Positions 54,001-57,000 of a stretch of 64,000 nucleotides of DNA are shown here, piece after piece. The position numbers are program-made. Source of the DNA: a virus (lineage: Duplodnaviria; Caudoviricetes); the IMG/VR virus record IMGVR_UViG_3300044608_000145, positions 1-64,000 of that record, one strand, 5' to 3'. Positions within the stretch are counted from its first letter, which is position 1. Every line of letters begins with the position of its first letter.

Positions 54001-57000
54001 GATAGCCTTATTGAATTTCGCTAGTATATTGTTCCGTATCGCCATCAACAATTGTCGTCACGATAGTTCCAACAATGGTATTAAATACAGTATCGGTAGA
54101 TCTAGAAGTTGATGCAGTCGTAGATTTTGATATCGATGCACCAGTAGCAAACACCGTATCATATTTAGTGGTTGTACCATAGAACGTATTAAATGACGTT
54201 GTTGTTGCGGTCGCTTTAGAAGTAGACTTAGAGGTTGATTTACTGGTATCATAAACCGAACCAAATACAGTAGTTGTTGCAAAAGAAGTATTTTTGGAAG
54301 TATCAGTCGATCTAGAAGTATCAGTTGTTCTAGAAGTTTCATTTCCTGTTAATGTTAATTTGCTAGTTTCTCTTGTGGTTCCAACTGCTATATCACTACC
54401 TGATTCTTTATCAAAAATAAATGTAAATGTATCTGTTAGATAAGTCGTAGTGGTATTTACACCACCAGTAATATAGGTTGTAGTCGTACCATATACAGTA
54501 GTCGTCGCATATGTTGTTAATATTGTTGTATCTGTACTGCGAGCTGTACCAGTTAAAGTGCTTCTACTTACTTCTTTAGTAAGAAAAACTGGTTCGCCAG
54601 ATACTGTAGTTGTTATTGTTGTATTATATGTTGTAGTCGTTGAAACTTCATTAGAAGTTCCGAATACAGTATTATAAACAGTGTCATAAACTGTTGTAGT
54701 ATTTGTAGATTTGGATGTTAGCTGGCTTGTATCAGTTAATTTTTGCGTTTCAAAATTAGTATCATATCCAGTAACATAAAGAGTTACAAACGTAGTGTTA
54801 AATACTGTTGATGTTGAACGCGAAGTTTGTCCTGTCGTTTGTCTAACAATATAAGAATTTAACAAAAACCCGCCCATATTAGGCTCGCTTGTAATATAGT
54901 GTTACTTTTAGTCCCTTCGCGCCACCACCAGCCACGTCGATATCCATAGTAATTTCGTCGTCATCAGCAATACTGGTTGATGATAGAACTGCAGCAGTAG
55001 CAGCAGTCGTACTTGTTTTTTCGTTCGCGTCAATTGTTAGTTTGGTGCTTAAAATAGAAGCACCATTTACATTAATGTCAACCGTAGGAGTTCCCGAACT
55101 AGAAGCAGTTGCTAAAGAAGCGCGAGGAATTTTAGTTAGAGTCCAAGCAAATGGAGCGCGGAATGTAATCTTTGCTGTACCAGTTGTAATGCTAGTAGTT
55201 TCATCAGAAAGAGCAAGAGTTAGTGATTGTTCAATACCAAGAGCCACTGCATTTGTTGAGAGAACAAATCCGTTCGCTACGTTTAATGTACCAGAAATAG
55301 TTGTGTTTCCAGTTGTGGTATTATTACCAGTTGTAACTACATTACCAGTTGCGACATTGCCAGAGACACTTAATGTTCCTGTTAGCGTGGTATTACCAAC
55401 TGCCATGGTATTAACAATTGTTACTGCGCCATTAACAGCAAGTGTGCTTCTTAGATTAACAGCACCACCAACGTTAGCAGTAGATACGATATTTGCATAT
55501 CCATCAACGTTTAGATTACCAGAAATATTCGTGTTACCAACGTTTAGAGTCTGCGCAGTAATCGAGCCAGTAAACGAAGGAGAAGCAGAAAGAACTACTG
55601 AACCAGTACCAGTTGAAGTTGCTGTACCTGTACCACCGCGAGCGACTGGTAGAGTGCCGACTGCGACAGCAGTTGCGTTTACAAACAAACCAGTAGAGTT
55701 AGCAATAATACCAGAGTTAGCTAGAACCGATAAAGTTCCTGTCGAGGTAATTGGACCACCAGTTAGACCTGAGCCAGAAGCAACAGAAGTTACAGTACCA
55801 GTTGTTAGTGTTGACCAATAAACATTACTGGTGCCAGCGCCAGATGTAAGAACTTGACCAGCCGAACCTTGTGAGCCATTAGCTGTAATTCTAGTAGTAC
55901 CAAATGCAACATTACCAGAAATAGTGACTGTATTTGAGAAAGTTGCTGCGTTTGTAACTGTAATGCTGTTTGAGAACGTAGCAAAATTAGTTACAGTAAT
56001 TCTATCGGAGAATGTAACATTAGCTTGGAAAGTACTGTTCGTGCTAGTTGTTAAACCACCACCAATAACAACGTTGCCAGAAATATTAGCAGTACCAGTT
56101 ACAGTCAGAGCAGCATCAGGAGTTGTATTATTTACACCGACTCTATTGTTTACCGAATCAACAAATAAAGTTCCTGAGTCAAAGTTAGAATTTCCTGAGA
56201 AAACAGTCGGAACGGCTGCATAATACCAGCTACTACCGTTGGCGCTATTAGCAGCCAGAAGATAGTGAGTTGCGTTCGCAGCTGTACCAGTGTTGACACT
56301 GCTTAGAGTGTCAATAGTCATCGCACCCTTAACGGCGAGCGAACCGACAGCAGACAAAATAGAGTTTGAAGCAATTACCAGATTAGCAGAAGAAACAGTT
56401 AAGTTTCCGCCAGCTGAACCAGTCACAGTAATGTTGTTTCCGACGAAGCCGTTAGCCACAAAGTAGCCACTGATTGCTGCGTTACCAGAAGCAGTATTTG
56501 ATTCTACCGTAACGACCTGCACAAACGCATTCGCTATTTGGTTGGTTCTTGTCAACCAAGTCGAAAAATTGTCTGTAGTCGCGACGTTTGCGAATGTAAT
56601 TGCCATTTATTTTCTCTCCGCCAGAACCGCTACGATTAGCGATTTTAACTCATTTATGTTTTGTTCTAATGAAACAACTTTGTTTTCTAACTCATCGACC
56701 TTACTAAACTTCTCGCGTCGTTTGCGATATGCTTCTAACGCTTGTACATTGGTATTTAGTACTGCACCTGAACTCGTATCTTTTACTAAATCTGGAGCAT
56801 CTTCAATTTTCAAATAATTCGTCATTTTTGCAGCGCGATAACTCGTAGGTCAGTAATTCTAGGTGGGTTATATTCATAACCCGAATCTGCTGTCAATACA
56901 ATTTTAATGCTGTATTTCTTGAAGCGAACGAAGTCGCCTGTTTCAGGAGCAGTTGCGCTGTAAGCAAAATATCCTTCACTGTTCTTGTATTCAGCAGGAA

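Follow-up and report, generated by a model that had tools for sequence, protein, structure and literature searches.

In single-layer beta sheets and designed hairpin peptides, aromatic residues lie across from Lys or Arg on the neighbouring strand and Thr lies across from Thr, with 'aromatic rescue' of Gly; such examples are short, at ~10–20 residues per strand. The needle of the phage T4 fibre protein gp37, a six-stranded homotrimer, is held by His-coordinated iron. In that needle every chain extends to the tip and returns, as antiparallel beta strands (PMC9659904). Gp7 of Stenotrophomonas phage DLP6 (KU682439.2, AAY80_265, 'baseplate wedge subunit protein'; locus L095, 11408-15274) comes from the closest named relative of the virus studied here (major capsid protein 75% identical); in the accessible main text of the DLP6 paper (PMC5349666) the word 'threonine' occurs 0 times and the mirror feature that we report for gp7 is not described. 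Here we analyse P0002, a threonine-rich protein encoded in a 64,000-nucleotide (nt) stretch of viral DNA (the window; positions 1 to 64,000 of IMG/VR record IMGVR_UViG_3300044608_000145, Caudoviricetes). An earlier inspection of this DNA (the original prediction) had proposed that P0002 folds back on itself in a branched 'cloverleaf', using the same residue-pairing code as a larger protein of the window, P0001. We find that the complementarity of the two P0002 stems is real, and that the best reading of it, unproven and in our estimate probable by a slight edge, is a branched fold-back beta ribbon that would form part of a virion fibre in a T4-like phage.

The ORF (open reading frame) and its parts, several of them putative strands, are as follows (aa, amino acids).

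54008..54877, minus strand: P0002 ORF, 289 aa plus stop, 32.2% Thr and 12.1% Ser.
54839..54877, minus strand: residues 1–13, conserved N-terminal peptide MGGFLLNSYIVRQ; residues 1–12 are invariant in 6/6 family members.
54653..54826, minus strand: residues 18–75, putative N-strand of the outer stem, with 58 gapless pairs on register i+j=285 (50.5 bits).
54545..54652, minus strand: residues 76–111, candidate side-branch module (SNEVSTTT...SGEP...SRSTLTG), which interrupts the N-strand opposite a 3-residue linker.
54467..54544, minus strand: residues 112–137, putative N-strand of the inner stem, with 26 pairs (4 of them aromatic-basic; 24.1 bits) on register i+j=318.
54338..54466, minus strand: residues 138–180, putative tip loop with the DKESG turn; a degenerate copy of the branch module, which aligns with a branch-like module of the homologue L007.
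54260..54337, minus strand: residues 181–206, putative C-strand of the inner stem; register i+j=318.
54251..54259, minus strand: residues 207–209 (GSV), short linker facing the side branch, from the nested-pairing search.
54077..54250, minus strand: residues 210–267, putative C-strand of the outer stem; register i+j=285.
54011..54076, minus strand: residues 268–289, conserved C-terminal tail (IVGTIVTT.[IV]DGDT.QYTSE.Q); 17/22 residues are invariant in 6/6 sequences.

The pairing code was read from P0001, in which it is most complete.

44885..48493, minus strand: P0001, larger paralogue, 1202 aa, Thr fraction 0.37, with a gapless mirror at i+j=1267.
46913-48301, minus strand: N-arm of P0001, residues 65–527, pairing with the C-arm.
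46277-46912, minus strand: tip domain of P0001, residues 528–739 (212 residues), between the arms.
44888-46276, minus strand: C-arm of P0001, residues 740–1202, pairing with the N-arm.

Traceback aligns P0001 residues 65–527 with 1202–740 in one gapless alignment of 463 pairs, so placed that the C-terminus lies exactly opposite residue 65. Among these are 64 aromatic-basic pairs, 2 aromatic-aromatic pairs and no basic-basic pair; every basic residue of the arms (37 Lys and 27 Arg, 64/64) is opposite Phe or Tyr, and a Phe without an opposing base faces Gly (8), Gln (5), Ile (4), Phe (2 pairs) or Ala (2). The key residues fall on one parity in 77/77 and 83/84 cases. With a crude matrix the antiparallel score is 380, against 53±6 for shuffled sequences (0/40 reach it), and the parallel score is 132. 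A self-trained matrix gives 398.9 antiparallel and 48.7 parallel, a comparison that is circular because the matrix was trained on P0001 itself. A DNA palindrome was considered as the source of the mirror and rejected: only short chance inverted repeats were found, four of them in the P0001 gene. Since a DNA palindrome cannot set one Thr codon opposite another, the mirror is a property of the protein.

For P0002 we used a log-odds pair matrix derived solely from the 463 P0001 pairs, in a nested-pairing search that admits stems, bulges and branch points at fixed penalties. Scores were compared with block shuffles, which keep blocks, and with key-identity shuffles, in which the identities of F/Y/W/K/R are permuted over their own positions. 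The optimum pairs residues 18–75 with 267–210 (58 pairs) and 112–137 with 206–181 (26 pairs), so that a matrix taken from P0001 alone selects the two registers drawn in the original prediction and bears out its claim of a shared residue code. All of the peptides and residue pairs quoted there are present in P0002. The 12 outer pairs (R20-F265, F26-R259, F30-A255, Y34-K251, Y38-A247, F42-F243, K46-Y239, Q52-Y233, K56-F229, Y64-K221, Y68-K217 and F72-K213) lie without exception on the single gapless antiparallel register i+j=285, eight of them aromatic-basic, one aromatic-aromatic and none basic-basic; the five inner pairs (R113-F205, I119-F199, Y123-K195, Y129-R189 and Y135-R183) likewise all lie on i+j=318. 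The nested score of 58.6 bits was reached by 0/100 block shuffles (39.7±4.3) and 0/100 key-identity shuffles (37.0±4.8), and the best gapless antiparallel segment, at 50.5 bits, by 0/200 block shuffles (23.9±3.1). Within the optimum fold, 12/19 K/R are opposite F/Y, one is opposite Leu, six are unpaired and none faces K/R. A crude hand-made matrix separated P0002 from its block shuffles modestly only (antiparallel 39 against 26±4.5; 6/300 reach it).

Register i+j=285 leads every other P0002 register by at least 24 bits. In raw number of aromatic-basic pairs the rival register i+j=255 comes first (9), yet its best contiguous segment is 26.0 bits over 17 pairs, against 50.5, and it was rejected. 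Also rejected was a zipping of P0002 onto P0001 or onto a third Thr-rich protein of the contig, related to gp7: the best cross-match was 32.8, with a null of ~30. The complementarity is therefore specific to P0002's own two arms. The large residues of P0002 are, moreover, evenly spaced, since 79% of the gaps between F/Y/W/K/R are even, against 45±7% after shuffling (0/2000 reach this value), a pattern that fits a single face of what would be an extended strand.

Based on these results, it appears that the Thr-rich body of P0002 may fold back into a thin two-stranded antiparallel beta ribbon. Residues 18–75 would zip to 267–210 and residues 112–137 to 206–181, giving a nearly continuous stem of 58 + 26 pairs, from whose N-strand the 36-residue branch (76–111) would depart and whose tip would be capped by the 43-residue loop. 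The register would be carried by large residues placed every 4 or 6 positions on one face, with Phe/Tyr opposite Lys/Arg or, failing that, opposite Gly, Gln, Ala or Ile, and with Thr opposite Thr in between. Since aromatic-aromatic, basic-basic and large-versus-Thr juxtapositions are avoided, wrong registers of the low-complexity strand would be penalised. The N-terminal FLLNSY peptide would dock on the GLKVTLYY-type C-terminal domain of a 575-aa fibre protein encoded upstream. What the data show directly is the complementarity and its statistics; the beta conformation, the pairing within one chain and the geometry of the junction are inferred. More tentatively, and a little short of an even bet in our judgement, we suggest that a clade-wide residue pairing code (F/Y against K/R/G/Q, Thr against Thr) sets the register of long ribbons and permits three-way junctions, so that branched architectures could grow or shrink by matched stem segments and self-contained branch modules.

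Homologues of P0002 were obtained only through synteny and the conserved ends. They comprise L007 (314 aa), L008–L011 and L091 (520 aa, identical to one another), and L013, L092 and L093 (544 aa), and the aligned family members amount to ~4 independent sequences. Across 6 aligned sequences, 121/289 P0002 residues are invariant, including residues 1–12 and the greater part of the last 22. Eight stem pairs retain the aromatic-basic class in 6/6 sequences; elsewhere it is kept in 5/6 at pair 68-217, in 4/6 at 129-189, and in 3/6 at both 46-239 and 64-221. Partner changes within the code also occur, from Q to K opposite Y and from I, A or T to R opposite F. Two of the longer homologues fold by the same search. 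L008 scores 87.2, against 66.2±5.1 for shuffles (0/22 reach it), with stems of 60, 30, 42 and 28 pairs and three interruptions by a 36–41-residue module opposite 3–5 residues. L013 scores 121.5, against 89.4±6.0 (0/22), and repeats the P0002 junction, in that a 39-residue module opposite 2 residues separates stems of 43 and 48 pairs.

The branch module (S-N-E-x-STTT ... turn ... SRSTLTG) occurs 7 times over four proteins. A Y-R pair is present in 7/7 of the best hairpins, though reduced to a 3-pair fragment in one L008 copy, and the homologues have from one to four branch modules each. The comparison supports a family shape in which a fold-back stem would carry a variable number of side branches, and not a cloverleaf. 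For P0002 itself, the part of the 'cloverleaf' that stands is a long fold-back stem of 58 + 26 pairs with one side branch, the 36-residue departure from the N-strand opposite the 3-residue linker, and a 43-residue tip loop. The additional short hairpins claimed around the SGEP and DKESG turns score 6.2 and 6.0 bits, which 205/500 and 355/500 shuffles reach, and are thus at the level of chance, so that the term was an overstatement.

Besides these chance-level hairpins, several observations weigh against a branched fold-back ribbon. At 4 of the outer positions an aromatic faces Ala, Phe or Gln instead of a base, and Thr-Thr pairs, which contribute wherever they fall, give the nested score a high baseline in shuffles. 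Individually, the branch-module hairpins exceed shuffles in 2/7 cases, both in L013, and P0002's own is not significant. Swap-type covariation, from aromatic-basic to basic-aromatic, was not seen among the ~4 independent sequences. Over these same sequences the longer L008 and L013 gain matched stems, while L007 is not significant (39.4 against 37.3±4.1; 10/40 shuffles reach it), and the optimum of L013 is without a P0002-type outer stem at the N-terminus. AlphaFold2 gave a mean predicted local distance difference test (pLDDT) score of 28.0 from the single sequence and 26.2 from a 6-row alignment, and placed strands at 126–137, 140–154 and 165–176, off the proposed registers, at a confidence too low to count. 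With pLDDT below 30, the models neither support nor contradict the P0002 registers. An ESMFold2 two-chain prediction of residues 14–80 with 205–271 scored 0.00 twice and counts neither way. Lastly, the outer arms of P0002 also match in parallel (23–80 with 210–267) at 42.4 bits, far above shuffles (22.6±2.7; 0/200) and against 50.5 bits antiparallel; parallel exceeds antiparallel in L007 (31.3 against 24.5), and the two are close in L008 (34.8 against 38.6).

These parallel matches bear most directly on the possibility, which we consider unlikely, that the pairing is between chains, with the N-arm of one subunit on the C-arm of another, parallel or antiparallel, in a homo-oligomer; the product would be a multi-stranded sheet or tube instead of a single-chain hairpin. 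Trimers are the usual form of phage fibres, and the i+j register would suit an antiparallel dimer as well as it suits a hairpin. Each outer arm consists of three nearly symmetric blocks, and from sequence by itself the outer stem can be read in either orientation. The antiparallel reading is taken because of evidence elsewhere: the P0002 inner stem is asymmetric and favours antiparallel pairing (24.1, where the best parallel segment nearby scores 17.5), only the antiparallel match is significant in L013 (42.7, reached by 1/60 shuffles, against a chance-level parallel 30.0, reached by 22/60), and the paralogues are unambiguous. Two nested registers with a branch would also be simplest within a single chain, and the P0001 C-terminus lies exactly opposite residue 65.

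Somewhat less likely again, in our view, is that there is no defined pairing at all, and that the body serves as a Thr-rich spacer, extended or disordered and perhaps O-glycosylated, in which aromatic-rich and basic-rich repeat blocks would alternate for unrelated reasons and whose registers are a by-product of the three symmetric blocks per arm. The very low AlphaFold2 confidence would agree with such a spacer, as would the non-significant L007 score, the matches in both orientations and the chance-level local hairpins. So would the outcome of the homology searches, in which a lack of relatives is usual for low-complexity sequence. No relative of P0002 was found in Pfam (E up to 0.01) or PHROGs, by tblastn against 50,697 phage records (a megablast of the locus was likewise empty), by a word-indexed protein search at near and longer lengths, or by phmmer against 1.84 billion representatives, and the ESM Atlas returned only unnamed clusters at 0.80–0.83; the low complexity of P0002 probably blinds these tools. 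A spacer of this kind fits poorly with a nested score that 0/100 block shuffles attain, with the 24-bit lead of i+j=285 over the next best register, with an even spacing that 0/2000 shuffles reach, and with a code that is perfect over 463 gapless P0001 pairs. Nor does it fit the substitutions between P0002 and its homologues, which at the first, second and third codon positions number 5/7/20 for L008 (92 codons) and 10/10/28 for L013 (42 codons). The excess at third positions shows that the P0002 frame is under selection at the level of the protein sequence.

A beta-solenoid of the antifreeze or ice-nucleation type, with stacked coils of constant length and TxT ladders, is highly improbable: it could draw on the very high Thr content and T-x-T patterns of P0002 and on 18-residue tandem units in parts of P0001 (parallel score 132), but P0002 has no constant-period array (Tandem Repeats Finder reports only 2–2.5 copies of 9-, 12- or 18-nt units), its spacings mix 4, 6 and 8, and a solenoid predicts parallel self-similarity, not aromatic-basic mirror complementarity.

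The P0002 ORF is real. At its locus the plus strand is stop-rich throughout and all surrounding genes are also on the minus strand. P0002 contains 29 F/Y, 19 K/R and 6% Gly, and has zero His, Cys or Trp. A Thr fraction above 0.18 is found in 2/43 of the tabulated minus-strand ORFs of at least 150 aa, namely P0002 (0.32) and P0001 (0.37). Long open frames in a second frame occur inside the Thr-rich genes, at 54058-54342, 46624-47220 and 47227-47694 (all minus strand); most likely these frames reflect the ACN richness of the coding sequence and are not genes.

The claims of a shared code and of a protein family are supported beyond the pair of proteins for which they were made, with three paralogues on the contig, the same pattern in DLP6 gp7, and the P0002 homologues of 314, 520 and 544 aa. 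The third paralogue is a gp7-like baseplate wedge protein of 2056 aa on the same contig but outside the window (65697-71864, minus strand; locus L096, 1697-7864), with an N-terminal part that belongs with phrog_17744 (2.5e-140) and Pfam PF23786. In the Thr-rich C-terminal part of this protein lie two gapless mirrors, of residues 1251–1503 with 1770–1518 (253 pairs) and 1029–1245 with 1990–1774 (217 pairs), which together make ~470 pairs around a short turn. In DLP6 gp7, the same mirror code joins residues 707–962 with 1242–987 in 256 gapless pairs (35 aromatic-basic, 1 aromatic-aromatic and 0 basic-basic); a cultured phage is therefore available for testing the fold.

The genes that flank P0002 bear on the second half of the preferred reading, that the branched ribbon belongs to the virion fibre.

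54879..56606, minus strand: fibre-like gene upstream of P0002, 575 aa; its stop precedes the start of P0002 by 1 nt.
54882-55226, minus strand: C-terminal ~115 aa of that fibre protein, a mobile domain ending ...GLKVTLYYKRA, which recurs in distant contigs.
53672..53998, minus strand: LtfC-like protein downstream of P0002, 108 aa; phrog_1084 at 2.7e-28 and phrog_3304 at 8.7e-24 ('L-shaped tail fiber protein assembly').

Both Thr-rich genes, P0002 and P0001, lie directly downstream of fibre genes, as had been noted in the original prediction. The LtfC-like protein also matches Pfam LtfC at 0.0026, below the family cut-off, and is 94–96% identical among close relatives. The 575-aa fibre gene and P0002 are jointly absent from L005, L006 and L012 and jointly present in L007–L013 apart from L012, and so behave as a two-gene accessory cassette. 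In 15 more distant contigs (loci L104–L118), other proteins terminate in the C-terminal domain of the fibre protein (~115 residues; 56–79% identity), which there ends ...GLKVTLYY[KR]R[AT]. In 15/15 of these contigs the next ORF starts M-x-(x)-[FYM]-L-x-N-[SP]-Y and has a body that is not Thr-rich; 4/4 of those tested have Pfam Gly_rich_2 (PF21722), a domain not detected in P0002 (Pfam, E up to 0.01). P0002 itself starts MGGFLLNSY, matching this FLLNSY-type partner motif.

This arrangement suggests that P0002 is a partner or tip protein of the upstream 575-aa fibre, and residues 1–13 are probably a docking element for the C-terminal domain of that fibre. The slot at the fibre tip looks swappable, with its docking pair conserved, and a different body, the Thr-rich ribbon, would have been exchanged into it here. 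Family membership and gene order are observed, while docking and any receptor-binding role for P0002 are inferred. The tip domain of P0001 (46277-46912), which has no Pfam or PHROG match and no relative in viral contigs, may be an orphan receptor-binding domain. Downstream of P0001, the ORFs at 42913-43788 and 43785-44687 (both minus strand) match no Pfam family at E up to 0.01, and the PHROGs matches of the latter are solely to families of unknown function (phrog_26179, 1.9e-82).

If the proposed code is correct, a simple two-letter complementarity would hold long low-complexity beta strands in one register, acting for beta strands somewhat as base pairing does for nucleic acids, and the pairing principle could be written down, tested and used for protein design. 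The code would also account for a class of giant Thr-rich 'hypothetical' proteins, encoded in the baseplate and fibre modules of T4-like phages and missed by profile searches. To the unbranched examples P0002 adds the suggestion that a side-branch junction, too, is possible under this code. At 289 aa it is short enough to be expressed whole, mutated pair by pair and solved as a structure, and it would then be the smallest natural test object for a programmable, sequence-coded rule of beta-ribbon assembly. The shared N-terminal peptide, in pointing to a swappable fibre-tip slot, bears on the evolution of host range in the clade.

Compared with described systems, P0002 is closest to the Thr-rich extension of DLP6 gp7, to P0001 and to the gp7-like protein. 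All four come from the same clade of T4-like phages and share a Thr content of ~20–37%, an even spacing of large residues and a gapless F/Y-K/R mirror free of basic-basic pairs. In the other three this mirror makes one long unbranched fold-back of 250–475 pairs that ends in a tight turn or a globular tip domain, whereas in P0002 it comprises 84 pairs in two stems with a side-branch module; P0002 is, in addition, a separate gene behind a fibre gene, unlike the gp7-type baseplate fusion. By position it resembles the gp38-type adhesins of T2/S16-like phages and the Gly_rich_2 partners, which are likewise small proteins encoded directly after a distal fibre gene. With the Gly_rich_2 partners P0002 has in common a FLLNSY-type start behind a GLKVTLYY-type domain, but the likeness extends over only ~10 N-terminal residues, and their bodies are sequences of different kinds.

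Among published there-and-back beta fibres, the gp37 needle (PMC9659904) is the nearest analogue. A phmmer search of P0002 against PDB sequences returned a single match, to an unrelated Mce protein (E 0.73), and none to gp37-type tips. P0002 has no His, unlike the His-metal sites of that needle, and for gp37 neither an aromatic-basic code nor branching has been described. The words 'threonine', 'hairpin' and 'antiparallel' are absent from the accessible text of a tail-fibre structure atlas (PMC12143355), and our searches of the literature for Thr-rich phage tail fibre or baseplate proteins and for two-stranded beta-ribbon fibres yielded no paper on this design. We thus found the mirror-coded Thr-rich fibre in no paper or solved structure. 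The pair types of P0001 (F/Y-K/R, T-T and F-G) are the same as those of the short hairpin peptides with which we began; here they would keep a register over 26–463 consecutive pairs and, in P0002, at a junction.

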